Assembly: GCA_000091205.1 (NCBI GenBank)
Contig: AP006502.2
Length of the DNA stretch: 64,000 bases
Strand: one strand, 5' to 3'
Source: Cyanidioschyzon merolae
Lineage: Eukaryota
This document shows, in pieces, positions 13,486-64,000 of the stretch (positions are counted from its first letter, which is position 1; every line of letters begins with the position of its first letter). The translations under genes were made by a program, and so were the position numbers. The notes below the pieces were generated by a model, which worked only from the letters and a program-made list of their open reading frames with translations, had not been told where the DNA came from and ran no database searches.

Positions 13486-16400
13486 ACCTCGGAGATGAAC
13501 AGGCCGGGCGCTCTTCACACACGAAGCCAGCTCTGTGCGGTGCAGGTCGCTCGCTTGTGAGTGTATCGCATATCTGCGGCACTTTATTTGTGTGTCTTGA
13601 GATCTGTGTGTCTATATGCTAGAGTATCAGCGGGTCGTCAGGCGCGTGTGTGGCTCCTCGAGCATGCGCTTCCCTGATCGCTCGACTCGGGGCCCTGCGG
13701 GCATTCAACATTCTCGACGCATCTGCGAGACGTGTGTCATGGATCCAACCGGCATTGCACCTAGCCGCTGGCAAGGCGCCTCTGAATCACTGGACATACG
13801 TAAGCATCGTGCTCGAGCTGTTGAGCTCTTTTCGAAGGGAATCTACCGACAACATGGCTTGCAAAGTCATCGGGGCGGGACCACACAACAGGGGCTTTGT
13901 TTGGACCCTCTTTTCAAAAACGCAACCAGAGACGGCACTTGGATGCATTCATTCAGCTTTCCGCACACGTAACAGGTTGCAGCTATGCACAAGCGCCTCG
14001 TACGCGACCGGTCATTAGCGAGATACCTGCGTAGAATCGCGGTCTTCGTAGAGAGCATGCGTTCCGTGCGACGCTCCAAAATGACAGCGTATTCTGTCCA
14101 CGATTCTGCCTGCTCGTCATTTGGCTACAGACCGTCGGCTTTGTGAGCGCAAGCTGAAAGCGTTCACGCAATGCGCATGATGCATCATCAATACAACCAG
14201 CCAAGCAAGACGGGATTCCTGACCATGGACTAGATTTCGCGTCAGGGGAGTCTGTCGAAGAAGCAATGCGTGCGAGGAGGACGTGAGCCAATCACGATCA
14301 TCCTCCATCCGCCCGGTCTTTCTCTGGGGTATTGAGTGAATGCTCAATCATTCGGAATAGAAGCCATGACGAAAAGCACCAAGAGACAAACGTGGGGTCA
14401 CTGCAGCGGCGTGCATACCAGCCCAAGCGCTTGCTGGGGCAACCAGTGCTTGCTGAGCGAACGCTGCGTAACGCTCTTAGCGACAGCAGTTTTAGACTCG
14501 CGATCGGCAGTGGCACACTCGGCAGGTCTTTTGGGCGAAGGATCAGGACGCATCCGGGATGCACTACTGCACACCTGCGGTACCAGAGAGGAACGAGGTT
14601 CCCGGACAGACCGTATTCCCGCTAGTGGAGGGTGCCGTACCCGCGCCTCGGCAATGCCTAACGAGGTTGCTGTTCAGGACTTGAATCTCTAGAATGCTTC
14701 CTACAGATGACGAGACTTTGGACTCAGAGCAGCGCACTTGCAAGAACATGTATCAACACGGTAAACGTGTAATTGTTTGTTTTTCGCACAGGTATTCAAA
14801 ACGTGGATTGTATATTATAGAGCGATGAAAGGTCGCGAGATGACTTTATGCTGGCTGGCTGGCTGGCTTCGGAGCAAAACGCCTTTACTTGTCCAGACCA
14901 GACATTGTGCGGACAGCAGACGTATGAGGTACCCCTCTCGTAGTGCGTTCCTTGAACGACTTGCACCGACCACAGCAAGTTTCAAAAGCTATCTACATGA
15001 GCGTCCCGTCTTTCATGTATTCCAGCCCGGATGATATCCATGACGTACCTCCAAAGAAGCCGCTGGATGAGAGGTTTTCGAACGGTTGATACAAATTGCG
15101 GTGAAGCGACACGAGTGAACGAAGAAGATGGCAGGCTACTACTTGTAGCTGCAGCACCTTGAACAGCGCACGATCGATTTCGCACTGCAACGCGAAAGTT
15201 TATTCCACCAGGGGCATATTGCCGTCTCAATGTATGAGACTTTATTCAGTAGACTTGGTAGATTTGTGTATGGATAATTCAAAACGGGGGCAAACTGCTG
15301 TTCATAGAAAAAAAGCAGCGGGGCTGTCGGTACTATTAGCCCTGGCTACGACTCGGTTATGTAGTTACTTATACATCGCCAAGAATTGTCTAATCGTTCA
15401 ACATCGCATGCTGCGGGGAATCACGTTTTGCGACCTATTCGTTTCACGTTCTTCTTCACTGGCCTTAGACGTTGCCGCTTTCCATCACTATAATGTGGTC
15501 ACGGAGTATGCAGATGAGATCGGCAATGAGCAGTGCTACGTGTGAGCGATGGCTCCCGGTTCCAATCGAGTAGGGGGTATGTCTGTCGGTCTCTGTGCTA
15601 CGCCCGATCCAGCGGTTTGGGCGCTGTTTCGAACGCTCACGGCAGTCGCAGTGCACAATGGAACGTCGGAAAAGCAGAATGTCGGAGATGAGGCACGCGA
15701 TGTGACTGGTGGAAATCGCAGAGCTGGTACGCAATGACGGCAGATTTCCCGGGTGTCGGTACTCGTCGTGAATTCCCGGATCATTGAGCCGTGAGCACAT
15801 TCCATCGATCAGAACGAATTTGCGGTGGGTTGCTCGACACTTGCTGGCCTGGCGCCGGATAGAAACACAATTCAAACCAGTTTCTCATTCCAGCGTCTGT
15901 GCAGAATGGACTGCAAGAAACGGGAATAAACGTGTATCCGTAGTCGGGAAGACTGCGGCGCATAGTTTGTTTACGATCAATAAAACGAACGAAATTCCTG
16001 TTGAGTAGGGTGATGCATACCTCGCCCGCACAAGCGTAAGATACTACAATGGCTACGCTTTTGATACAGGCGTCGAGGGGTATCGTGCCAGGCCCCTGCA
16101 TCCCCTTGTCTGTCGGGGCGGTACTGCGATGGGCAGTAGCGTCGGCACCAGCGACAGAACCTATAGCAAGAGTTCATTCTACGTGAGTTTCCGATGTACA
16201 ATACGTTGTTTTGGCTGCAGTGCACCGGTGAGAGCACGCATGTGCCAATGCGGGGTGTCGGACACGTGTCCTTTATCGATCGGTGCAGCGTCTCGCGCGG
16301 TGCACGCATCGCGCTCAGTGCGCGCACCTAGGAGATCAGGCAGGCGTGAGACACGACGCGCATGCCGCCGTTGAAGGGAAACGTAATCGTGATCAGCAGC

Positions 16401-16511
16401 GTCTAGCTCTCGTGTTAAAGTTGTATTTTCGTTGACTTTATGGGCAAGTATAGTTTTCAGTTCAATTGTGTTTGAAAACTCAAACAAGTGTATTCTAGTG
16501 TTTTGTCGCAG

Positions 16512-16519
16512 TATATAAG
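16512..16519 (+). promoter_or_regulatory. TATA box (tatataag) about 50 bp upstream of the element ATG
   Basis: gcagTATATAAGaggagcg is conserved in copy D (41455-41462) and degenerate in copies A and B. Confidence 0.4.
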
Positions 16520-16570
16520 AGGAGCGTTCAAAGAGGGTTCTTTTTCAAAAAAAACTAAACAAGGAAAGTT

Positions 16571-18911
16571 ATGAAAAAGCAAGTCGACGATCCTGGAGGC
16601 CCAGTGTCGCCGGCTGCCAGAAAGAAAACAAAACACAGTGCCGAGTCCAGAAGAAGAGGAGAAGAAAAAGAAGCAAAAGGAGGAGGCTCTACGTCGAGTG
16701 CTGCAAGAAAGACGAATGTACGACGAGAAGGTGGTGAAAGCTGGTCTTCTTGGATATATCAAGGATCCGTACAGGGAAAATTTGCGAGACGCTATCAGAA
16801 AACGTGTCGACTCGTACTCCAAGAGTACTGTCAAGGCGTCGTCAGGACTGATGCACTCGGCGAGGGAGATGTATCGCGACGTGACGCACATGCAAACAGT
16901 CGAGGTCCCAGACGAGTTGTTCGACACGACCTTTATTCGATACTTGATGCTCGGTACAGGGGAGATGCGAAGGGAAAATGAGCGAGTGCACGCCCTCTGC
17001 CAAAAATACTCCTTCTACAGCTTCGAGGGCACTCGATACAGGGTTGACTCGTGTATTTACGAATACGGAGCGATAAAGTACCCCACGAACCTGAATAAAC
17101 ATTTGACCGTGAACCTCGAACGTTTCATGATACGCGCCGTGTTTGCACTCTACCCGGGCATCTCTCGCAAAGCGATATGGATCATCATCGATAGCATCAA
17201 AAACGATAGTAAGAATGAACAGGTGATCGAATTTGTTCACGAGAAGACATTATGCAGGAAAACGAATGAAGCTTCTGTAATCCGTGCGGCTATACAAGAG
17301 CACCGTGCAGCACTGGGGCTTGCGAGTCCAGCAGAAAAGATATCAGAGTTGAAAAAAGATAAGAAAAGATACCATCGCCTCGTCCTGCGCTATTTCGTGT
17401 TTTTGGACCGAGAGCTCGAACGCAAGGCGGAAATGAAGCTGAGTGAAGAGACAAATGAATATTGGGAGAGACGGAAGCCTGTCCTAATAGGGCAGCGCTT
17501 CAACGTGGCTCCAATGTCCAATATCAAGTCACATTTCCTGACGATCGATTCCGGCGTCGTTCATGGCATCATGAGGGAGATCAGTCCCGAGTTCAATGTT
17601 AACAGGGAGGAGTTCTCCGGCGAAAACCGGGAGACGCACTGGAAGAATATCTTCGATTCCAAACGTCTGAGAGTGAGCAAGCAAAAGTTGTTCACTGAAA
17701 TGATTGAAACCGATGGAGTGGCCTTGTGTATACACTATCGGCGGTTGAAGAGAGATCGGCCAGTCCCTCCCTCGGCCGCGCCCGTGACGAAGGATGAAGA
17801 AAAGGAGGAGGCCGGTCCTGCGACACAGGAGGTAGACGATAACGACCTTGTCGTTGGCGCGGCGGAGCATGAAGATGAGAAGGAGGCGGATCCTGTGATG
17901 CAGGAGGTGGAGGATAACGGCCTTATCGTTGGCGCGGTGAAGCTTGATGAAAACAAAAAGGCAGATCCTGCCACGCAGAGAGTGCAAGATAATGACTTTG
18001 TCGTTGGCGCGGACCCTGGGAATACGAATATCATCACCATTGCAGCACCCAAGCGTGCGGAAGATGGTGCTGATGGTAACTTGCGTCAGAAAAACATGCG
18101 TCTTTTGAGGTTCTCGAGAGCGAGATACTATCGAGAATCGGGAATGATGAATGCAAGGAAGAAAATCGAGACATGGAATGCAGGAATGAAGGAGCACCTG
18201 GACGCTATGAGCGAGGTGACGAGCCGAGGAGCGGACTTTGAAGCTTTTCGGGAATTCATGGAACTTCGTGTTGCGCATTGGGATGCACTGTGGGAGCAGT
18301 ATACCAAGCCTCGGTTGGCTCGTCTGCTTATGAATCTATACGGGTAGAGGCAGCGGGCATTTGCGAACTTTTTCAATCAGTTGAGCGCCCTCAAAGAGGA
18401 TCAAAGTCAGAGGCTGGTAGTAGCATACGGGGCAGGGCGCTGGGCGCCCAAGAAAGGCACTACGCCAGCTCCATCGACGAGAACGTACAAGGAGTGTGCG
18501 CGGCGTTTTGTTAAAATTCCTGCAGATGAGTTTCGAACATCGTATACACATCATGAACTGGGATGTACACTTCAGACGGTGGAGATAGAAAAGTGCCAAC
18601 GGAGTCCTGAGGAAATAGCAAAGTACGGACCGCTGACGGAAGAGCAAATGGAAAGAAGGGCGAAAGTGCGAGGGCTACTCGCATTAGTAAGTACAACCAG
18701 TGATGGAAAGAAACGGATGGAGTCTGTGAATCGAGATTGTAACGCCGCTATCGATATAAGGAAATGTGCGGTGCTAGAGAAAAGACCTCCAGAATGGACA
18801 AGAGAGAACTTTATTGGACAACCTCTCAAAGTCGAACTATATGAGAAGAAGTTGGAAGCAGTAGTGGGTGGCCGGTCGCAAAAGTCTGGGAGGCGTCTAC
18901 ACCTCGGATGA
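16571..18911 (+). pseudogene. Fanzor/TnpB-like RuvC nuclease gene (copy C), nearly intact: one 2-bp poly-A frameshift and one in-frame TAG
   Basis: MKKQVDDPGGPVSPAARKK at 16571 shifts frame in the run aaagaaaacaaaac, where copy D has two more A. From 16638 to 18911 there is a single reading frame apart from the TAG at 18345-18347 (NLYG*RQRAF). RuvC-I is [19 protein letters not shown]. After it comes IPADEFRTSYTHHELGCTLQ...EKC, an E..TS motif plus a Cys/His cluster. RuvC-III is RMESVNRDCNAAIDIRKC. The N-terminus is Lys-rich and looks like a nuclear localisation signal. Confidence 0.6.
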
Positions 18912-18920
18912 AAGCGTTAT

Positions 18921-18985
18921 GTCTAGGGCGGGTTTCTCGCCACTAGTGTGCACGGTCGGCATCGTTCGACTGCGTTTAGGTTCTC
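18921..18985 (+). ncRNA. Candidate omega-RNA-like scaffold, or other conserved 3' end structure, of copy C
   Basis: The 3' tail begins right after the ORF stop and is conserved in all four copies (gtctagggcg-gg...cgcc-ac.a.tgt.cacc/ggt.ggc..cgtt.g). A GC hairpin, GGCG-ggtttct-CGCC, is present here; copy D has a lengthened stem, GGCGCG-ggtca-CGCGCC. Confidence 0.3.
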
Positions 18986-19216
18986 TCTTTTGCAAATGAA
19001 ACACATCCTCCATCAGACTTGCGAAAACGACGCAGCGCTCCTTGTCGTGCGAAGGCGTTTCCGCGCTCGTGCCTGCAACGCTGTACATACCCGTGTGTCT
19101 ACAGAGGCCGGCGCCATGCAACCGCCCTGGCGAGCAGCTGTTTATCCGGAGATGCTTATAGCATCTTGAACTCGGAGTCGAGCTTCGTTTTCCGTTGTGC
19201 GCAGATGGTGGCGTGG

Positions 19217-21364
19217 TCACACGATGCAAGCTGCCGCCGCCGCCGCTGCTGCAGTCGTCGAGGTGCTCGGTCCCGAAGAATGCCCAGTCTGACCCGCATT
19301 CCAGGTCGCAGCGCTCGCTGGATCCACAAAGCGAGTTTCGAACGCTTCTCGCTCTGCCTCGTAGTCGATGAGCACTGTTTGCCCCTCCTTGCCAGGTAAA
19401 TCAAACTGACAATCAAGGAGCACCCGTTCCAAGATACCCCGAAGACCTCGTGCACCAACGCCTTTGTGAACAGCCTCGCGTGCCACTGCCCGCAGCGCTT
19501 GATCCGTAATGTGCATATCGACGCCACTCATGCGAAACATCTCTCGAAACTGACGCACGAGTGCATTGCGCGGCTCGGTGAGCACCTGGACCAACTGCGG
19601 TTCAGTGAGCGCCCGGAGATTGACAACGATCGGGAGACGTCCCACAAACTCGGGTACCAGTCCGTATCGAATGAGGTCCGTTGACTCGACATGATCCAGC
19701 AGTGCATCGTCGACAGCGTCGGAAGCAGCCACATGCGCACCGAAACCAATCGAAGTCGCTGCTAGTCGATGACCAACGATGCGCTCCAGGCCGGAAAACG
19801 CACCGCCACAGATGAAGAGGATGTTGCGCGTGTCCATGGGAATGTACTCGGCACGAGGATTCTTCCGACCGCCTTTCTCCGGTACATTGACGATCGAGCC
19901 TTCCAACATTTTCAGTAGGGCCTGCTGGACGCCCTCGCCGGATACATCGCGAGTGATGCTGGGGCTCTCTGACTTGCGCGAGATCTTGTCGATCTCGTCG
20001 ATATAGACAATGCCCCGTTGGGCCAGATTCAAGTCGAAATCCGCTGCTTGGAGCAAACGGTGCAGAATGGATTCAACGTCCTCGCCAACGTAGCCGGCTT
20101 GGGTCAGGGTGGTTGCGTCCACCATAACAAAAGGGACCCGGCACTTGCGCGCCAGGGATTTCGCCAGCAGCGTCTTTCCGGAGCCGGTCGGCCCCAGCAA
20201 CAGAATATTCGACTTTTCGAATTCGACGCAGTGATCGAGGAGGCTGTTGAGTGTCAACGATGCAGCCGATGAGGCATCACCCATTCGGTACGGAAGCGAA
20301 CCAGGCATACAACCGGCGTTGCCAGTCCCGTAGGAGGCCGCACCGGGCGTCGAACTGCGCAGTTCCAGAATCGGCCCAGGGCGGCTCTTGACCGACTCCC
20401 GTGACGTCGCATGTGCGTCATCTGCACCAGTCGACTCATGGATGTATGGGGCACGTGTTTTCGTGCTCGCAGTCAAGTCGAGGTCACTGCTTCGAAACGC
20501 TGCTTCCGTTAGGTCGTCAAGCACAATCGGGCGGCGAGACATGTTCGACTCCGCCGGGGATGCCTCTGCATCACTGTCGAGCGGCATGCGGCGAGGACGA
20601 ACGTTTCCCGATGACCACGAGGATGACGGGTTTGCGTTACTGCTGTCGATGGAGTGGATTGCTGGAGGAACGCGTGTACCAGCACCCGATGTGCGTCGTG
20701 ACCCATGCATATCCGACATCATCATCAGCAGAATGCGCCCTGCGGAGGACTGGAGCGACGGTTTCCCTGAAATCGTTTGGGATGTGTTGCCGCTGGTGCT
20801 CGTGCTACTGCTCGTGCTACTGTTGCTACCACTGGTACTGTTATTGCTCAAACTCTCTTCGAAACCGGGCCAACCAAAGCGGGTGCTGGTGGTATTCTCG
20901 TTTTCGCTGGTGCCACCCATGCCCACGGTTGAAGCAGCGGAGGCAGCCCGCACGCGCTCCATCAGTTCACTCGCGAGCACCTTCTTATAGTGATTATGGG
21001 TGGCGACTGCCAAGACGCGTTTCGCCTTTTCCTGTCCTATGCAGTACTCGTTCAGGTGGTCGAAAAGCGCACGCGGCGTCGGGAGCGCCGCAACCCGCTG
21101 TCTCAGGAGCCGCGTATAGGTCGCCATTAGGTGACCGTCCCGCACTGCAGAACCGTAACGAAACTCGTCGGCGTCCTCCCAGCTTCCTGAACGAGTACCG
21201 CTTGTGCTCAAGCACTGGACACCGCCCTGGCGCCGACACCGGTGAATGGTACCGACTGCGGCCAAACGAGGCTCCACTGACTTTTGTCCCAGAGAGCACC
21301 AGGCTTTCCAGTCTACCAGATAACTCCGTTGGGAAAGCACCGCATCGACCCGAACCAACGACAT
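19217..21364 (-). CDS. clpX: ATP-dependent Clp protease ATP-binding subunit ClpX (organellar type)
   Basis: Walker [46 protein letters not shown]. Walker B and sensor region [17 protein letters not shown]-terminal part ...[15 protein letters not shown].... There is a long Ser/Thr/Asn-rich insertion and an N-terminal extension. The track start is GTG; the first ATG is at 21364. Confidence 0.85.
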
Positions 21365-21540
21365 TTCCTCTGACAAGTGCAAGCACACACAGACACAGCC
21401 ACAAAAGCTCGCGCTGACCTGGCGCTGCTGAAAAGCCGTTTACTCAGGAAACGTTGTGCAGGCGCGCCGCGGGATCGTTGCCGCTCAACGGGCTCGAGGT
21501 GCACTGCCGGCGGACGCGTGGCGGCGTTCTCCGCACGAGA

Positions 21541-21575
21541 TGATGATGATAACGATGATAATGATGATGATGATC
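21541..21575. repeat. Imperfect (GAT)n microsatellite
   Basis: Reads tgatgatgataacgatgataatgatgatgatgat. Confidence 0.7.
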
Positions 21576-22897
21576 ACGGGGTACGGCTGCGGCATCCTCC
21601 GCATCTGGGGCAGCGTAGGGCGCGCGGTGAGCGGCCTGCGCGCGATCCGCCCATCGATGATGCTGGTGCCCCAGCGCTGTCTGTGTGCTGTTTCCGACCT
21701 ATGGATCGCAATGGAGAAACTGAAACTCATGAGACATGAATGTATATTACAGTCATGCGTGCGCAAGCTCGGCGCTGACCAGCGACGCTGCCGGTGCTGC
21801 GCAGCGTCCCCTGGAGCGCGCGAAAGACGCTCTGTCTTCGAGTTACATCGGCATGAACAGTGTAGGTGGTATTGTGGATGCAGTGCGGCAGGTGCTCGGT
21901 GCACAGTGGAACGCATGAAACGACCAGTAGATTCGCGGGGCAGTATTGGTCATGGAACGTGAAGGTGGAGTGCAGCATGCAGGGCGCTTTCCCGGATGCA
22001 GGTATTCATTACGCAAGCCGGGACCCGTGGTCCACGGAAACCTTTTGTTTAACGAGAGAAATTGACGGTGCAAACCAGCACGCGATCCTCGTCTGCTTTG
22101 CCTCGCAAAATGGGAGTAACGACATGCGGGTATATCAACAACACGTCGCTATCTTGCTGCTACGTTCCGGATATTCATTCGTTTGCTTAACTTACCACCA
22201 TTCGATCATCGAAATTCGCTTGAACAACAACACGTCGCTATCTTGCTGCCACGTGTTTCCCGCTTCGCATATTACAACGCACCGTATGGCAGGCGACGAC
22301 GCTGTGCCGCTTATGCAGTCAGTACCGCAAGGATGCCCAGACCTGCGGCAGGCACACAACGCGCATGACGCGCTAAACTTGCAACTAGAGCATCTTCCAG
22401 CGGCTAATGAATGCCCCAAAGAACAGGTCCAGGGAACTCGTGGCGGCCGCGGTTGCATGTGCACATGCTGTAGTAGCGCGGAGGATTGCGGTGCGCTCGG
22501 TGCTGGTTGCCTGCGCACCCTGCCACCAGTGCAGCCACCACAACTTGTCCATGGCATCTGTGCGAGAACACGTAGCACGCGGCCGCCTTGCCTATGTGAA
22601 ACCGTTCATTGTTTACGGCCAAAGTTTCGAAGAAAGATGGTGAACCGAGACTCGCTGAAGCACATCGTTTCTTTCTCCAGACCAGTACGGAGACGATGTC
22701 GCGACGTTCATGAGCTGAACAACTCCAGCAGTACCCAGGATGCTCCGTGGCACCCTTGGAAACGCGGGCCATTGCCGCTGACGTTGCGAAGACGCCAGGG
22801 TCCGCATCCGCACGCCAGCGAGCAGCGAACTCTAGACGTGCTATTTTCAAGCAGGCGCTGGCTACAAGAGACCGCATCCCGGTACGGGCGCTTCGCT

Positions 22898-38748: not shown

Positions 38749-39865
38749 TGGTAGAGCTCGAACACTAGGGTGAACAGGAACCACGCTGGCAGTTCCTTTG
38801 CTAAGGCGTCCACTAGCGCCGCAACGTTTTCCAGTAACCGGTGAACTTGCCGCTGCCACGACCGCCGCATACAGCGCTGCACTGGCCGTTGGTCGGATGG
38901 TGGCGGAGGCGATGGCGGATATGCTGCGGCGCTTTACATGTCGACAGATTCCCAGGATTTCAAAGACCCGGAAGGCAACACGTTCAAAGTTCGTTGCTAT
39001 GAAGCATGAGCTTTCGAAAGCGGGTTACGAAAGGTAACTCGCGTCGGGCATACCGTTCCCTTGCGGGCGAAGCGCACGTCGGCAGCGGGCGACAGCCCCG
39101 CACGCTTCACAGCGCCGAGCCCCTGCCTGAAAGAGCGTCCGCTGCGCTCGGGCGTCGCTACCCAGCAGTAAGTTCGCAGAGTAGGCCTGCACGTGCTGCA
39201 TAGTGACCGGAGCCCGTTTCCAGCAATACTTTGCGCGACTCGCAGACCATGGTTCACCGACTTGAGGTAGGCTTGCATCAGCGGTCTTCCCGTTCGCAGG
39301 CGAAACTGCACTGAGCTGCTCGTTCACCTTGAAAGGTCGCGATTGGCAAGCACGGTACAATGCAGAACATTGAGGGGGAACGGTACCGCATGTGCAAAGT
39401 GCTCACATCGATCAGCGTGCGGAACGATATGTACATCCATTTTCACGCGATACCTATCAACCATCATCATGGTTTGGCTTCTGGTGCCTCCAGACCAAAT
39501 CCCGTGCTCAGAGGATCGCGCTTCTTTCGACGCATGCTGGTGCACTCGCCCGAGGACAGCGGGAACAGCAAACGCATGTCGCCGCAGTGCATATACGCTG
39601 GATGGACGACCACTCGCTTTCGAGCAGTCGACGCTCGCGAGTATTCAGCAAACGTCTTCATCATGACGATGTCGCAGTTCCGAGGAATACGCTGTGACAC
39701 AGCGGCCGGTGTCGCGTTCCTGGCATCCCGCTCCCTTGTTGGCGCTCGTGCGTCCGCATGTGCACCGAAGGACGCACCAGTGCGCGTCTACGCATTCGGG
39801 GTACCAGCTGCGTTGCGACGCCACCGAAAACTCGCGAGTACGCGAAGCTTTGCTGGACGCACACC

Positions 39866-40492
39866 CTAGTATTGCTCAAAACGAGCACCAAGTAGAGCAG
39901 CACCTGCCCATGGAGTTGGTACGACAACAATGTCGTGCGTGGTAACCGAGCATTCAGGTGCTGAAGCGCGCAAACCCTTCACAACCGAAAATACCACCGT
40001 CATCGCGAGCGTCTCGCAGACAGTGCAGGAGGCGACGCGTACAACCAGGTCGCCTTGTAGGAGGCCTCCCTGGGCCGCTGGTGACCCAGCCTCTACCTGC
40101 ACCACCTTTGCGAACGGTCTCAGGTTCGACTGACCCAGACTCGTCTCAGTCCAGTCTGAGCTTTGTGCTGGCTGGTTGTCTCCGGGGCGGTGTTCCCGGC
40201 TCGAGGCAGTCCGCACCGCTGGTGCGCTCTCCACGACTCGTGACGCAGACGCTGTAGACGGTGCGGTTTGCGTGTGTGCTGGCCCGCTTGGAAGCATCTC
40301 CGGAAGCAGCCTTCCAGTTTCTTTCATTATCAGATAATAGTCGGTTTGCAGGCGCACGAGACGTTGCCAATACTGGCGGATCTGGTGTACATCGCAGTCC
40401 GAACGGGGGAAGCCGTCCTCGTGAACGAGTGGATCTCGCACCCCGGCAGGCGTGGCTTCTAAGCAGGATACCAAGTGTTCAATGTCACGCAC
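39866..40492 (-). CDS. PSMD9/Nas2-like PDZ-domain protein (proteasome regulatory particle assembly chaperone)
   Basis: PDZ core ...FAKVVQVEAGSPAAQGGLLQGDLVVRVAS.... C-terminal ...IVVVPTPWAGAALLGARFEQY matches the P-x-P-W-x-G-x-G-L-L-G end of PSMD9/Nas2. The track start is GTG and the first ATG is at 40327, so the helical N-terminal portion HQIRQYWQRLVRLQTDYYLIMKE would need a non-ATG start or an intron. Confidence 0.45.
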   Translation of the reverse strand: MRDIEHLVSCLEATPAGVRDPLVHEDGFPRSDCDVHQIRQYWQRLVRLQTDYYLIMKETGRLLPEMLPSGPAHTQTAPSTASASRVVESAPAVRTASSREHRPGDNQPAQSSDWTETSLGQSNLRPFAKVVQVEAGSPAAQGGLLQGDLVVRVASCTVCETLAMTVVFSVVKGLRASAPECSVTTHDIVVVPTPWAGAALLGARFEQY

Positions 40493-41514
40493 GAATTCTT
40501 CTTACTGTAGGGCTAGCGCTAGTAGGCGCTGTACGCTGTCGGAGGTCATTTGTTCGACGTCTCAGACAGGCGAACGACGGCGCGTAGCTCCAGGCGTTGC
40601 CCCGGGAACCTTTACGGACGAGGTCGTTTACGAGGCTCAGCGTCCGAAGACCATAAAACGAAAGTATCATCGGAACTTGGCTCGAAAGGAATCTGGGCAG
40701 AGTGCTGACGCTGTATACGATTTTTGAATGACGACAACAACAGCGACAACCGGCCTCATGGCATGGTCAGAAATCGGGACTGTCGAGCAGTGGGACGCAC
40801 GAAAACCGCACAATTCAAACCAGTTTCTCATTCCAGCGTCTGTGCAGAATGGACTGCAAGAAACGGGAATAAACGTGCATCCGTAGTCGGGAAGACTGCG
40901 GCGCATAGTTTGTTTACGATCAATAAAACGAACGAAATTCCTGTTGAGTAGGGTGATGCATACCTCGCCCGCACAAGCGTAAGATACTACAATGGCTACG
41001 CTTTTGATACAGGCGTCGAGGGGTATCGTGCCAGGCCCCTGCATCCCCTTGTCTGTCAGGGCGGTACTGCGATGGGCAGTAGCGTCGGCACCAGCGACAG
41101 AACCTATAGCAAGAGTTCATTCTACGTGAGTTTCCGATGTACAATACGTTGTTTTGGCTGCAGTGCACCGGTGAGAGCACGCATGTGCCAATGCGGGGTG
41201 TCGGACACGTGTCCTTCATCGATCGGTGCAGCGTCTCGCGCGGTGCACGCATCGCGCTCAGTGCGCGCACCTAGGAGATCAGGCAGGCGTGAGACACGAC
41301 GCGCATGCCGCCGTTGAAGGGAAACGTAATCGTAATCCGTAGCGTCTAGCTCTCGTGTAAAAGTTGTATTTTCATTGACTTCATGGGCAAGTGTAGTTTT
41401 CAGTTCAATTGTGTTTGAAAACTCAAACAAGTGTATTCTAGTGTTTTGTCGCAGTATATAAGAGGAGCGTTCAAAGAGGGTTCTTTTTCAAAAAAAAACT
41501 AAACAAGGAAAGTT

Positions 41515-43801
41515 ATGAAAAAGCAAGTCGACGATCCAGGAGGCCCAGTGTCGCCGGCTGCCAGAAAGAAAAAACAAAACACAGTGCCGAGTCCAGAAGA
41601 AGAGGAGAAGAAAAAGAAGCAAAAGGAGGAGGCTCTACGTCGAGTGCTGCAAGAAAGACAACTGTACGACGAGATGGTTGTGAAAGCTGGTCTTCTTGGA
41701 TATATCAAGGATCCCTACAGGGAAAAGTTCCGAGGCGCTATCAGAAAACGTGTCGATTCGTACTCCAAGAGTACTGTCAAGGCGTCGTCAGGACTGATGC
41801 ACTCGGCGAGGGAGATGTATCGCGACGTGACGTACATGGAAACAGTCGAGGTCCCAGACGAGTTGTTCGACACGACCTTTATTCGATACTTGATGCTCGG
41901 TACCGGGGAGATGCGAAGGGAAAATGAGCGAGTGCACGCCCTCTGCCAAAAATACTCCTTCTACAGCTTCGAGGGTACTCGAAACAAGGGTGACTCGTGC
42001 ATTTACGAATACGGAGCGATAAAGTACCCCACGAACCTGAATAAACATTTGACCGTGAACCTCGAACGTTTCATGATACGCGCCGTGTTTGCACTCTACC
42101 CGGGCATCTCTCGCAAAGCGATATGGATCATCATCGATAGCATCAAAAACGATAGTAAGAATGAACAGGAGATCGAACTTGTTCACGAGAAGACATCATG
42201 CAGGAAAACGAATGAAGCTTCTGTAATCCGTGCGGCTATACAAGAGCACCGTGCAGCACTGGGGCTGGCGAGTCCAGCAGAAAAGATATCAGAGTTGAAA
42301 AAAGATAAGAAAAGATACGATCGCCCTGTCCTGCGCTATTCCATATTCCTGAACGGAGAACTGGAACGCAGGGCCGATATGGAGCACGGTGTGGAAGCAA
42401 ATGCAGTGCCGGAGAAACGGGAAGCTGCGCTTCTGGCGAGGCATTTCAACGTCGTTCGGTTACGCGAGATCAAGTCCCATTTGTGACGATCGACTCCACA
42501 GTCTTTCAGGACATCATGAAGGAGATCTGTCCGGATTTCGATGTCAGCAGGGAGGTGTTCTCCGGTGAAAACCGGGAGACGTTTGAAATCGAAGATATTC
42601 TGCTTCGATTTCAAACGCCTCAAAGTGAGCAAGCAAAAGCTATCCGCGGGGATGATCGAAACCGATGGCGTAGCCATGTGTGTTGACTATCGGCGGTTGA
42701 AAAGCGATCGTCCTGGCCCGTCTTCGATATTGCCCGTGACGAAGCATGAAGATGAGAAGGAGGCGGGTCCTGCGACGCAGGAGGTGGAGGATAACGGCTT
42801 TATCGTTGGCGCGGTGAAGCATGATGAAAACAAGAAGGCGGATCCTGCCACGCAGAAAGCGCAGGATAACGACTTTGTCGTTGGCGCGGACCCTGGGAAC
42901 ACGAATATCATAGCCATCGCAGTACCGAAGCGTGCGGAATATGGTCACGACGGTAACTTGCGCCAGAAGGACATGCGTCTGTCGAGATTCTCGACAGCGA
43001 GATACCATTGAGAATCCAGTATAATGAATGTGAGGAAGAAAATCGAGACATGGAATCCAGGAATGAAAGAGCATCTGGAAGCGATGAGCGAGGTGACGAG
43101 TCGCGGAGCGGACTGTAAAGCTTTTCGGAATTTCATGGAAGTTCGTGTTGCGCATTGGGATGCACTGTGGGAGGAGTATACAAAGCCCTGGTGGGATCGT
43201 CTACGTATTAATCTATACTGTCGGAAGCAAGGTGCATTCAAGAAAATTTTCGATGAGTTCAGCGCCTTGAAGGAGGATGAAAGTCAGAGGCTCGCATTAG
43301 CGTACGGAGCAGGGCGCTGGGCTCCGAAAAAAGGGTGTACACCAGCTCCAACTACAAGAACATACAAGGAGTGCGCAAGGCGTTTCGCTACGATACCTGC
43401 AGATGAGTTCCGAACATCGTATACACACCATGGACTGGGGTGCACATTTCAAAAGGTCGAGATGGGAAAGTGTTAACGGAGCCCTGAAGATATCAAAAAA
43501 GTACGGACCGCTGACAGAAGAGCAAATGGAAAGAAAAGCGAATGTTCGAGGGCTATTCGCATTAGTAAGTACAACCAATGGCAAGAAACTTATGCGATTC
43601 CTGTATCGCGACTTTGAGGCCGCTATCAATATAAGGGCATGTGCGGTGCTGGAGCATAGACCTCCAGAGTTGACACGAGAGAATTTTATGGGGCAACCTG
43701 TCAAAGTGGGACTATATGAGAAAACTATGAAACCAGTAGCAGGTGGCCGGTCGAGAGAAACTGGGAGGCGTCTGCAGCTCAGTTGGCGACTTCGTGTCTA
43801 G
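41515..43801 (+). pseudogene. Fanzor/TnpB-like nuclease pseudogene (copy D): intact N-terminus, two in-frame stops and one frameshift
   Basis: MKKQVDDPGGPVSPAARKKKQNTVPSPEEEEKKKKQ... runs continuously to a TGA at 42484-42486. The second segment (42541-43011) holds RuvC-I, ...[25 protein letters not shown], and ends at the stop at 43009-43011. A frameshift near 43440 follows, then ...IPADEFRTSYTHHGLGC.... The final piece (43403-43801) has ...RFLYRDFEAAINIRACAV, which is RuvC-III. Confidence 0.6.
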
Positions 43802-43875
43802 GGCGCGGGTCACGCGCCACTACTGTACACCGGTGGCGTCGTTCGACTCTCGAACGGCGTTTGGTACGTGAGGAA
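43796..43875 (+). ncRNA. Candidate omega-RNA-like scaffold, or other conserved 3' structure, of copy D
   Basis: gtctagGGCGCGggtcaCGCGCCactactgtacaccggtggcgtcgttcgactc... A 6-bp GC stem replaces the 4-bp stem of copy C, which is consistent with a conserved hairpin. Confidence 0.3.
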
Positions 43876-45869: not shown

Positions 45870-47500
45870 GAAAGATGCTCGTTTCACTCGATGAGATTTC
45901 AGTCGGGAGACATGGCAGACTTGTATGTAGACATTGAAAGAGAGGTAAACCGCTGTTCGTAAGGAGGAGACGAGCGAGCATGCCGATATCATCCGTTCGC
46001 GGGCGATTCAATCGTACGATCGCCTAAACAGGTAACACAATACGCAGGACCTAACAGCACCTCATCCTTCGTCGAGGCACTCGTCGGGTTTCCCGCTTCC
46101 TATGATGTTCCGTGCTGCTTTCAGGAAACGCTGGTTTCCATCACTCAGAATCTGCCAAGGAGTATGCAACTGAGGCTGGCATTGAGCCGCTCTTCGTGCC
46201 CGCCTATTCTTTCTGGCTCACTCCGATTGAGGGCGTTCCCTCTGTTCCCGAACGCCATTGTTACGTTAACGGATCATTAGACGGGTCACTCGCTTCTACG
46301 ACACCGTTCTTTGAGGAATCGTTCTCTGCACTCAACAATCCTGAGCCGCTGTGTTGCTTTTCTGCTCGTTGGCGGGATGCGGTGGAGGCGCGCGCTTCGG
46401 TCTGTGGGTGTTCGCGCTACGGAAAACGCCATGAAAAGGCACCTGAGACAGCACAGATCCATGGAGACATAGAAGGAGCGAGTTCCGGAGCCACCGTCTA
46501 CCCAGTGCCTCTGGAATCCGACGAGAAAGCGTACATAGCGTACAGCGACGATACCCATGACTCCCCGCCATGTCAAGGACACGGCGATGGAAGAGCTGGT
46601 CTCCGCGGGCAAGTACGCAGCATTCGAACAACTCTGCGAAGGGCAATCAGGAACGCGCCCAGGTTTTCTTGCCTACAGGGATAGGCTGAAGGAAATGTAC
46701 ACGGGCGACAGACGCTGATGGAATATCAATCAGCACGCACTTTGTGAAGCCGGGACCTCTGTCGCGACATTGGACGCATGCCCGAGCCCTCACAGTAGAG
46801 GAAGCGAAGCGAACGCTTTGTGGCGGGCGTGGATCCCGCGTCGAAGAACATCACATTCATCGCCGTATCGCTAGATATAGCGGACGCAACCAAAGACCTG
46901 ACCTGAAACCAGGTGAAGCCGTTTAACTTTCCCACTACGCGATTTCATTGGGATTCGGGTACGGTGGAAGTCCGGAGGTATCCGAACATCTGGAACGACA
47001 AGGTCGGAACCGATCCCGATGCACCGAGCACCGTACGGAGCAGAGGCGAATGCTTCGTGCGCTTCATTCAGGAAGTACGCGAGTGTCGAAATGAACCATA
47101 TGGGCGGTTGCTGGCAGGATAACCTGGGATCACGCTGAACTCGGCAACGGTATCGGTAGAACGTAGACACGACTCGCGCATTCGCCACTTCCCTCAACGG
47201 GCCGGAAACCCAGGTGATCTCAAAGTCGTGTCGTTTGGTGATACAAGTCAATGGCCTTAGACGTGATGCAATGCCCAGAAGCCCGCACTCCCGGTCAAAC
47301 GGCCAGACCGAACAACGAGTCCAGGAATCGAGTATCTGCGAGACCCATCGATGCGTTCAGCACGACATGTGTACGCATCACGAGCATGCGGGCCCGCTGA
47401 ATCTGGTAGAAAGAAGAGCGCGACACATAGACGGATGCACGAGAAGGTGCACAGTGAGGTGACTGAGCGTCAAATGGCGAGGCGGTTGCAGGTGGGAAAC
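45870..47500 (+). mobile_element. Tc1/mariner/IS630-like DDE transposon remnant, repeat copy 1
   Basis: The high-identity core 45953-47499 matches 62454-64000. The ORF 46112-46684 begins ...SGNAGFHHSESAKEYATEAGIEPLFVPAYSFWLTPIEG. This matches the DNAxxH ... LPPYSPxLNPIE C-terminal motif carrying the final acidic residue of DDE transposases; the first Asp is replaced by Gly. The N-terminal two thirds of a transposase are absent. Confidence 0.5.
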
Positions 47501-52322: not shown

Positions 52323-52465
52323 GCAGCGTGCGCCTCAGGGTCACACAAAGTTCGCATCTTGACTTCATTGTCTAGTTTCTTGGGAGCATACTGCAACACG
52401 CTGCTCTGTGCACGCCGGAGCGCATGGCAGGGACCCTGCTGTCGAGAACGCTTCTCATCCAAAAG

Positions 52466-52640
52466 TCCGTAAATATACGAGGGAAATCGATCCAGCTGCA
52501 GTATCAGTGCATCACCACTATTCCCGAGGTATCCCGAGCATCGCAACGTATATCCCAGAGTCCGTAAATATACGAGGGAAATCGATCCAGCTGCAGTATC
52601 AGTGCATCACCACTATTCCCGAGGTATCCCGAGCATCGCA
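52466..52640. repeat. Tandem duplication of a 95-bp unit (1.85 copies) just downstream of BASS
   Basis: Unit tccgtaaatatacgagggaaatcgatccagctgcagtatcagtgcatcaccactattcccgaggtatcccgagcatcgca... at 52466-52560. It is repeated exactly at 52561-52640. Confidence 0.9.
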
Positions 52641-62369: not shown

Positions 62370-64000
62370 GCACTGGTTTTCGCCTCAGTCGATGAGTCTT
62401 TATCGGGAATGACTGATTCATCTGTATACGGGTATTCAAAGGGAGACAACCTGCTGTTCGTAAGGAAGAGACGAGCGAGCATGCCGATATCATCCGTTTG
62501 CGGGCGATTCAATCGTACGATCGCCTAAACAGGTAACACAATACGCGGGACCTAACAGCACCTCATCCTTCATCGAGGCACTCGTCGGGTTTCCCGCTTC
62601 CTATGATGTTCCGTGCTGCTTTCAGGAAACGCTGGTTTCCATCACTCAGAATCTGCCAAGGAGTATGCAACTGAGGCTGGCATTGAGCCGCTCTTCGTGC
62701 CCGCCTATTCTTTCTGGCTCACTCCGATTGAGGGCGCTCCCTCTGTTCCCGAACGCCATTGTTACGTTAACGGATCATTAGACGGGTCACTCGCTTCTGC
62801 GACACCGTTCTTTGAGGAATCGTTCTCTGCACTCAACAATCCTGAGCCGCTGTGTTGCTTTTCTGCTCGTTGGCGGGATGGGGTGCAAGCGCGCGCTTCG
62901 GTCTGTGGGTGTTCGCGCTACGGAAAACGCCATGAAAAGGCACCTGAGACAGCACAGATCCATGGAGACATAGAAGGAGCGAGTTCCGGAGCCACCGTCT
63001 ACCCAGTGCCTCTGGAATCCGACGAGAAAGCGTACATAGCGTACAGCGACGATACCCATGACTCCCCGCCATGTCAAGGACACGGCGACGGAAGAGCTGG
63101 TCTCCGCGGGCAAGTACGCAGCATTCGAACAACTCTGCGAAGGGCAATCAGGAACGCGCCCAGGTTTTCTTGCCTACAGGGATAGGCTGAAGGAAATGTA
63201 CACGGGCGACAGACGCTGATGGAATATCAATCAGCACGCACTTTGTGAAGCCGGGACCTCTGTCGCGACATTGGACGCATGCCCGAGCCCTCACAGTAGA
63301 GGAAGCGAAGCGAACGACTTTGTGGCGGGCGTGGATCCCGCGTCGAAGAACATCGCATTCATCGCCGTATCGCTAGATATAGCGGACGCAACCAAAGACC
63401 TGACCTGAAAACAGGTGAAGCCGTTTAACTTTCCCACTACTCCATTTCATTGGGATTCGGGTACGGTGGAAGTCAGGAGGTATCCGAACATCTGGAACGA
63501 CAAGGTCGGAACCGATCCCGATGCACCGAGCACCGTACGGAGCAGAGGCGAATGCTTCGTGCGCTTCATTCAGGAAGTACGCGAGTGTCGAAATGAACCA
63601 TATGGGCGGTTGCTGGCAGGATAACCTGGGATCACGCTGAACTCGGCAACGGTATCGGTAGAACGTAGACACGACTCGCGCATTCGCCACTTCCCTCAAC
63701 GGGCCGGAAACCAGGTGATCTCAAAGTCGTGTCGTTTGGTGATGCAAGTCAATGGCATTAGACGTGCTGCAATGCCCAGAAGCCCGCACTCCCGGTCAAA
63801 CGGCCAGACCGAACAACGAGTCCAGGAATCGAGTATCTGCGAGACCCATCGATGCGTTCAGCACGACATGTGTACGCATCACGAGCATGCGGGACCGCTG
63901 AATCTGGTAGAAAGAAGAGCGCGACACATAGACGGATGCACGAGAAGGTGCACAGTGAGGTGACTGAGCGTCAAATGGCGAGGCAGTTGCAGGTGGGAAA
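62370..64000 (+). mobile_element. Tc1/mariner/IS630-like DDE transposon remnant, repeat copy 2, truncated by the window end
   Basis: 62454-64000 is about 98% identical to 45953-47499 at a constant offset of 16,501 bp. The ORF 62613-63185 is the same transposase-tail ORF with a few substitutions. Similarity decays gradually to the left of 62454 (45953 in copy 1). Confidence 0.5.

Follow-up and report, generated by a model that had tools for sequence, protein, structure and literature searches.

A very probably non-functional copy of a known Fanzor1 family

The stretch of Cyanidioschyzon merolae 10D chromosome 20 analysed here (contig AP006502.2; 64,000 nt, referred to as the window) contains four copies of one repeated element, named A, B, C and D. 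The present analysis concerns copy C, in which a family-conserved ATG opens a damaged open reading frame (ORF) on the + strand, spanning 16571-18911. Copy C is very probably a non-functional, neutrally decaying copy of the Fanzor1-bearing element CMe-1A, as indicated by its anatomy, its family assignment, the lesions that it shares with a copy from an environmental lineage, and the neutral pattern of its substitutions.

CMe-1A was described as a Fanzor1 element of C. merolae present in ~150 copies, which are ~80% identical to a consensus of ~3 kb (Bao & Jurka 2013; PMC3627910). No terminal inverted repeats (TIRs) were found for it, its target site duplications (TSDs) could not be determined, and its 5' 635 bp were shared with the non-autonomous element TE-N2_CMe (PMC3627910). 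The family was considered old, yet with "some individual elements still encoding intact Fanzor1" (PMC3627910), so the near-intactness of some copies was already noted in 2013. Copy C agrees with this description in its host, its multiple copies (mean pairwise identity ~0.8), its length of ~3 kb, its single Fanzor1 ORF and its long 5' non-coding part. It is a member of this already known family, in the genome where the family was described, and as one decayed member of a family catalogued in 2013 it matters little in itself. What can be added to CMe-1A is a variable 25-aa repeat linker, two 3' hairpins, an indel-prone A-tract, gene conversion, and the finding of no intact copy among 46.

The ancestral element probably encoded a ~760-aa, omega-RNA-guided DNA endonuclease with a split RuvC domain, belonging to the TnpB/Cas12 lineage. 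In the history proposed here, copy C would have acquired a +1 length change in an indel-prone A-rich tract located 16 codons into the ORF, a two-step GGG-to-TAG nonsense mutation between RuvC-I and RuvC-II, and a TGG-to-TGA change that ends the ORF five codons short of the family stop. Its terminal hairpin would have been destroyed by a deletion of 8 nt, and at least ~110 nt would have been lost at the 5' end. In addition, ectopic gene conversion would have made the frameshifted 5' 1.1-1.5 kb almost uniform with that of the dead copy D, so that the frameshift may have been copied between C and D.

Reading frame and lesions of copy C

Translation in frame 1 from the ATG at 16571 (MKKQVDDPGGPVSPAARKK...) closes after 136 codons. 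Frame 2 is open over 16575-18911 save for one internal TAG at 18345-18347 (context NLYG*RQRAF), and over 16571-18911 it contains three stops, namely its first codon, this TAG and the terminal TGA, compared with 33 and 45 in the other forward frames and 12-30 in the reverse frames. Because its stop count is far lower than that of the other frames, frame 2 is a real degraded ORF and not a chance opening. An earlier inspection of the letters alone (the sequence-only reading) had described copy C as a RuvC nuclease ORF, damaged yet nearly open, and this was borne out, the nuclease being of TnpB/Fanzor type; inactivation, one of the options that it offered, was the right one. Its figure of 758 codons was not reproduced: the ORF repaired by adding two A's and changing the TAG has 781 codons, i.e., 780 aa plus stop.

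In the four-way alignment of the window copies, the A-rich tract reads AAAG--AAAAC in C and AAAGAAAAAAC in D, while the codon at the TAG position is GGG in A and CGG in D, as the sequence-only reading had stated for the TAG and its sense counterparts. The comparison of distinct copies indicated that the ancestral GGG is kept in 33 of 45, that TAG occurs only in C and in the metagenomic contig L003, and that the other 44 have a sense codon, mostly GGG. The change from GGG to TAG in copy C amounts to two substitutions.

The proposal that only two mutations separate copy C from a full-length gene could not be upheld. The terminal TGA is a TGG-to-TGA nonsense mutation lying five codons before the family stop, and the conserved terminal hairpin has lost its 3' arm to an 8-nt deletion. 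The 5' end is also truncated: copy C matches the long-form copies only from ~15846, whereas these copies (L007, L011, L024, L061, L076 and L081) run at least ~110 nt further upstream. Furthermore, changes private to C are found at superfamily-conserved positions (Q125Y, E577Q, R587L and N729D), and at another such position C has W583L, which is absent from most family members. The RuvC-III motif is NRDCNAAIDI in C versus NRDFNAAINI in the family, the departures being F724C and N729D. Thus the statement that the rest of the copy is open with intact motifs was right for the frame and for the catalytic residues D482, E654 and D723, but the terminal TGA is derived and N729D falls inside RuvC-III.

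Lesions were counted with tblastn against a hand-joined protein consensus of the family; a column-majority DNA consensus gave artefactual frame changes at the A-tract and at the repeat array. By this tally copy C, with one frameshift and two stops, is among the least damaged of 46 distinct copies, while D has four stops and one frameshift, A three and three, and B five and two. Copy D, against which C had originally been measured, is therefore a damaged reference. No fully intact copy was found among the 46 sampled by counting against this consensus, and in copy C an uninterrupted ORF from family start to family stop is prevented by the frameshift, the internal TAG and the early TGA. The possibility of an ancient dead family whose genomic copies all carry the same lesions had been put forward as a check, and the paralogs do not share the lesions of C.

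The A-rich tract and the case for recoding

Between GGCTGCC and GAGTCCAGAAG, the tract measures 17-28 nt across 37 distinct copies. The modal length of 23 nt is in frame; other frequent lengths are 26 nt (in frame), 24 nt (the state of copy C), 22 nt and 25 nt, and by phase 17 of the 37 copies are in frame, 10 are at +1 and 10 at +2. The 24-nt length is common to C, L003, L051, L026 and L027. The last two are metagenomic orthologs of D, and the tract of one of them is identical to that of C, whereas D itself has 26 nt; the +2 of D in strain 10D is therefore derived. Copy C is +1 relative to the family mode and not -2, so that the observation of a tract 2 bp shorter than that of D, with the start out of frame, was correct but its polarity was not. 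The tract of D (41563-41590), 2 nt longer than in its orthologs L026 and L027, brings the start of D back in frame in a copy that is otherwise dead. This gain shows how fast the tract length changes. In decaying copies the A-rich tract is simply a homopolymer where indels are frequent, and it is not conserved as a site of recoding.

Full-length expression of copy C by recoding would combine slippage in the A-rich tract with readthrough of the TAG. In favour of this explanation, the ORF is broken only twice on the way from the ATG to the RuvC-III motif, no catalytic residue has been lost, and the tract is so indel-prone that its length differs even between D and the orthologs of D. However, the tract of copy C (A3-G-A4-C-A4) has no homopolymer long enough for slippage, and the phases of the 37 copies show no fixed offset, as would be expected of a conserved slippery run (a long homopolymer or an X XXY YYZ heptamer). 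With respect to readthrough, the standard code applies, as at least four host ORFs of the window (one of them an eIF2B-subunit gene) terminate with TAG; the TAG of copy C is private to this locus, the other 44 distinct copies having a sense codon there. Besides, dN/dS (the ratio of nonsynonymous to synonymous substitution rates) has been ~1 since the lesions arose, and two rare events would have to coincide on one molecule. Recoding is thus very improbable.

An intron that removes the TAG or the tract and leaves the mature mRNA open is conceivable in principle, since GT...AG pairs with multiple-of-3 lengths exist around the TAG and Fanzor genes in other eukaryotes can carry introns. Nevertheless, introns are scarce in C. 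merolae (a few dozen in the whole genome), the other copies have no insertion at the TAG site, and the candidate introns would delete colinear residues that are conserved in all other copies (WDALWEEYTKPRWARLRMNLYxGKQRAFANFF). Both around the TAG (WDALWEEYTKPRWARLRMNLY-G-KQRAFANFF) and around the tract, residues are colinear and conserved in all other copies. The chance that an intron is involved is close to nil. The suggestion of expression through slippage, readthrough or an intron is therefore unsupported by the tract composition, the TAG distribution and the colinear conserved residues.

It is also imaginable, albeit very improbable, that the A-tract is a hypermutable element by which all of CMe-1A is switched on and off, in which case copies may pass quickly from in-frame to out-of-frame lengths and back; the +2 that D has gained in strain 10D relative to its own orthologs would be one such change. 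If this were true, a near-intact copy such as C could be reactivated or supply low-level protein in trans, and a eukaryote would control an RNA-guided nuclease in a way analogous to bacterial phase variation.

Shared lesions, a neutral substitution pattern and gene conversion

The contig L003 (Ga0078972_1003310), from a hot-spring metagenome, is 98-99% identical to copy C over the 3' half of the element and over 2.9 kb of 3' flank, which includes a host AAA-ATPase gene. L003 equals C in the 24-nt tract length, the TAG, the terminal TGA and the deletion in the 3' hairpin. The lesions therefore do not stem from sequencing errors, and they arose before the two lineages separated (synonymous divergence, dS, ~0.012). 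The dating of the inactivation as very recent can be accepted relative to the age of the family, as the paralogs are at dS ~0.38 and the lesions are few, but not in absolute terms, since L003 has the lesions too. The explanation that they are errors of the reference sequencing or assembly, with the real copy being intact, would suit one of the lesions, as length errors are typical of low-complexity A-rich tracts such as the one in which it lies. But the independent assemblies L003 and L051, from other samples, match the tract length, L003 has the other three lesions as well, and the TAG is two bases away from the ancestral GGG. This explanation is already largely refuted and extremely unlikely.

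Outside the conversion tract described below, 18 nonsynonymous and 5 synonymous changes separate C from L003, with a dN/dS of 1.02, while the adjacent host gene has a dN/dS of 0.17, from 6 changes only. Paralog pairs have a median dN/dS of 0.37-0.40 at dS ~0.38. The probability of at least 18 nonsynonymous changes among 23 is 0.03 under an omega (dN/dS) of 0.37 and 0.60 under neutrality; the substitutions between C and L003 are thus compatible with neutrality, and the family-typical value of 0.37 is rejected (p = 0.03). The family protein was under purifying selection for most of its history, most strongly in the RuvC half, and this constraint is no longer visible at locus C.

The substitution pattern also bears on a truncated product of 543 aa, which would run from an ATG at 16716 to the TAG at 18345, comprise the N-terminal domains and, of the RuvC motifs, only RuvC-I, and serve the family as a regulator that binds RNA or DNA but is nuclease-dead. 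The new ATG restores an in-frame start just past the frameshift, and nuclease-dead TnpB derivatives acting as regulators have been reported in bacteria (PMC10705468). In L003, however, the position is CTG, so the ATG arose after the lesions, and in other copies the family peptide there is RQLYDE or RRRYDK. Scanning ribosomes would first meet the ATG at 16571 and be captured by its overlapping ORF of 136 codons; dN/dS is ~1, the 5' end and the 3' hairpin are damaged, and the exact 543-aa product is absent from a collection of 15 billion proteins that includes the NCBI proteins of strain 10D. It is very unlikely that such a product is made.

Copy C is 97-99% identical to D from 15866 to ~17400 (D 40809-42350) and ~80% identical beyond. 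The segment 16991-17364 is 97-98% identical to D but only ~76-90% identical to L003, and dS between C and L003 is 0.32 inside it and 0.012 outside, so this ~370-bp tract became D-like only in the 10D lineage, after its split from the metagenome lineage. The 5' identity of C and D and the D-like tract found only in 10D together indicate ongoing ectopic gene conversion between copies 25 kb apart. Through conversion with D, the frameshifted state may have passed from one copy to the other. The decay of CMe-1A copies is shaped by gene conversion and by A-tracts prone to indels, and therefore an "almost intact" ORF is not evidence of recoding in such a family.

When L003 and L051 were compared with window positions 38902-40808 and 15866-21904, L003 1-8338 and L051 1-2699, from different samples, were both found to consist of the 5' flank of D, a C-type element and the 3' flank of C. 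The junction is either a real rearrangement between the two copies in the environmental strain or a chimeric assembly across near-identical 5' parts.

Some points weigh against regarding copy C as a dead CMe-1A element. Its damage is low and all three catalytic residues are kept, and its lack of expression is inferred. The contrast in dN/dS depends on 23 substitutions, and its host-gene control on 6. L003 carries the 5' flank of D instead of that of C, by rearrangement or chimeric assembly; its orthology with C is secure for the 3' half, which contains the TAG, but ambiguous at the A-tract, where C and D are 97% identical. Finally, the assignment to CMe-1A was made from the published description (host, copies, length and identity).

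Fold, active site and relatives of the family protein

Evidence for the fold came from a family member and not from copy C. An AlphaFold2 model of P0001 (752 aa, 70-72% identical to the repaired C) was built on a 70-sequence alignment, with a predicted local distance difference test (pLDDT) score of 82 and a predicted template modelling (pTM) score of 0.80. In a Foldseek search of the PDB with this model, the seven best matches were all Fanzor1 proteins (SpuFz, PpFz and GtFz; E 1e-15 to 5e-13), the top one being SpuFz (9ceu/8gkh; E 1e-15, template modelling (TM) score 0.72), with PpFz and GtFz next, while Fanzor2 and Cas12 matches were far weaker. Across 71 relatives, conservation reaches at least 90% in the columns of D482, E654 and D723, and copy C has retained all three residues. 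By its predicted fold and active-site motifs, the family is Fanzor1.

Sequence searches were less informative. Neither the two ORF halves nor the repaired protein scored above threshold against any Pfam or NCBIfam family, and no PDB match was obtained with the protein or with the family profile. The Pfam model Cas12f1-like_TNB stayed below threshold (E 0.23 for P0001 and 3e-4 for the distant relative P0028). A word-indexed protein search returned unnamed metagenome proteins only, and the ORF products of C, D and B had no match as annotated proteins in the collection searched. A metagenome scan for exact copy C peptides found nothing; an alignment-based scan gave 387 relatives in hot-spring-type metagenomes. 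Exhaustive phmmer gave 1232 relatives, many of which have 580-700 aa and an identity of 30-40%. In P0014, P0026 and P0027, the N-terminal peptide runs on into the protein body without a break.

The mechanism was probably omega-RNA-guided double-strand DNA cleavage, by analogy with characterised Fanzor1 homologs (PMC10432273). SpuFz1 of Spizellomyces punctatus (PDB 8GKH, 9CEU; PMC10432273) has a split RuvC with D, E and D, as in CMe-1A, although the two proteins share only 14-15% sequence identity. SpuFz1 elements have 30-nt inverted repeats, whereas none are reported for CMe-1A and none were seen in a scan for repeats of at least 60 nt. The CMe protein also differs in a disordered repeat insertion and in the region between RuvC-II and RuvC-III, where C and the family carry an HH..C..C cluster (THHELGC...KC) instead of a canonical CxxC...CxxC finger; the P0001 model is less confident there (pLDDT 53-61 around residues 670-720). 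The 75-bp repeat unit encodes an acidic stretch of 25 aa and is present three times in C, twice in D, once in A and in B, and at least five times elsewhere; the equivalent region is disordered in the P0001 model (pLDDT 30-46).

TnpB of IS200/IS605 elements (e.g., ISDra2) is the ancestral family of RuvC RNA-guided nucleases, and these elements lack TIRs and TSDs, have subterminal hairpins and produce a guide RNA from their 3' end. In contrast to them, there is no TnpA transposase (Y1 or serine) in or beside the CMe element, and the CMe protein is about twice as long as TnpB, has a eukaryote-type K/R-rich N-terminus and reaches the threshold of no TnpB model in Pfam or NCBIfam. The weak Cas12f1-like_TNB signal of the relative P0028 may reflect a likeness to TnpB.

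The 3' end and a candidate omega-RNA

About 60 nt past the family stop are common to the copies and consist of hairpin A, the spacer CACTACTGTACAC and the terminal hairpin B. Two registers of hairpin B are found among the copies (CGTTCGAC-TTTC-GAACG and CGTTTTTC-TTTT-GAAAGACG). Homology among copies stops right after ...GGCGTTTGG. In copy C hairpin B is reduced to GGCATCGTTCGAC-T-GCGTTTAGG, where the consensus is GGCGTCGTTCGAC-TTTCGAACG-GCGTTTGG, and L003 has the same deletion. In hairpin A both arms have changed with pairing kept (AGCGTG/CACGCT in L038, GGCGCG/CGCGCC in L027 and GGCGAG/CTCGCC in L025). Of 36 copies, 28 fold more stably on the sense than on the antisense strand (p = 3e-5), and the mean z-scores of the hairpins versus shuffled sequences are -1.2 and -1.5. 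RNAalifold found almost no covariation signal on the alignment of 3'-end sequences, because the hairpins sit in different registers in different copies. Rfam gave no match on 15700-19200, and as a test for an overlapping RNA, third-codon-position conservation at the 3' end of the ORF was not in excess.

For SpuFz1, a 75-nt omega-RNA scaffold was located at the same position (PMC10432273). The ~60-nt two-hairpin region is therefore regarded as the candidate omega-RNA scaffold and candidate right end of the family. From the comparison of copies, a clean consensus is available for the Fanzor1 of an alga that tolerates acid and heat; together with this compact candidate scaffold, it could guide the resurrection of an active nuclease.

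Feature map and surroundings

The coordinates are collected in Table 1. The 5' non-coding part of copy C from 15866 to 16570 is 95-99% identical to D 40809-41514, and the RNA fold of the 705-nt 5' region is not notable (z-score -1.5). The listed ORF within copy C spans 16638..18347.

Table 1 Features of copy C (numbering of residues from the repaired protein) and the other copies of the element in the window
Feature	Position	Strand	Basis or remark
Copy C element, 3.1 kb	~15846-18980	+	Homology limits among copies
5' non-coding part (upstream region and 5' untranslated region), truncated	15846..16570	+	Homology limits, C-D identity
Start ATG, MKKQVDDPGG...	16571..16573	+	ATG and next codons conserved in most copies
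Frame-2 open segment: N-terminal (REC/WED-like) part, repeat linker, RuvC-I	16575..18344	+	Translation; fold from family member
A-rich tract AGAAAGAAAACAAAACACAGTGCC, 24 nt, frame 1 to frame 2	16619..16642	+	37-copy comparison
Frame-2 ATG private to copy C of the window	16716..16718	+	CTG, CAA or CGG in other copies; CTG in L003
Gene-conversion tract	16991..17364	+	D-like in window, diverged from L003
Tandem repeat, 75 bp x3, 25 aa each, in frame, directly upstream of RuvC-I strand	17788..18012	+	
RuvC-I catalytic Asp GAC, D482, motif GADPGNTN	18012..18014	+	Near-invariant column, 71-sequence alignment
Internal nonsense TAG, ancestral GGG	18345..18347	+	Distinct-copy comparison
Frame-2 open segment past TAG	18348..18908	+	RuvC-II, His/Cys cluster, RuvC-III
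RuvC-II Glu GAG, E654, motif DEFRTS	18528-18530	+	
His/Cys cluster THHELGC...KC	within 18348..18908	+	
RuvC-III Asp GAT, D723, motif NRDCNAAIDI	18735-18737	+	
Copy C stop TGA, from TGG (Trp)	18909..18911	+	3'-end alignment; consensus ends ...HVSWRRFV*
Family stop TAG, in frame	18924-18926	+	3'-end alignment
Hairpin A CTAGGGCGGG-TTT-CTCGCC-A-CTAG, intact in C, overlaps family stop	18923..18946	+	
Hairpin B remnant and element 3' end	18958..18980	+	Homology among copies stops just after
Copy A	~217-2528	-	
Copy B	~3270-5704	+	
Copy D	40809-43848	+	

Copies A and B, both heavily degraded, are arranged head to head with their start codons ~1.2 kb apart. Homology of the long-form copies keeps extending upstream into other Fanzor fragments, so that the true 5' end and the target site of the family are hard to place. 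In L076 (~3000-3180) and L032 (~3000-3180), the long-form 5' end lies immediately after the 3' end of a different Fanzor ORF, which resembles window positions 5546-5679; this arrangement suggests tandem or nested insertions.

The window is gene-dense and intron-poor, with 50-58% GC, and contains genes for a cullin, eIF2B and the like. Three of five long host ORFs were exact matches in the protein collection, including the Nug1-family GTPase XP_005539105.1 and the zeta-carotene desaturase XP_005539120.1. A 1.6-kb segment occurs twice (45884-47499 and 62385-64000), its two copies being 97% identical and spaced by 16.5 kb. Within it is a degraded piece of a second Fanzor-like gene, a distant one that shows 27-33% identity to the RuvC-I region in tblastn. 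At 52457-52640, two adjacent 89-nt direct repeats, 98% identical and 95 nt from start to start, are unrelated to the Fanzor copies.

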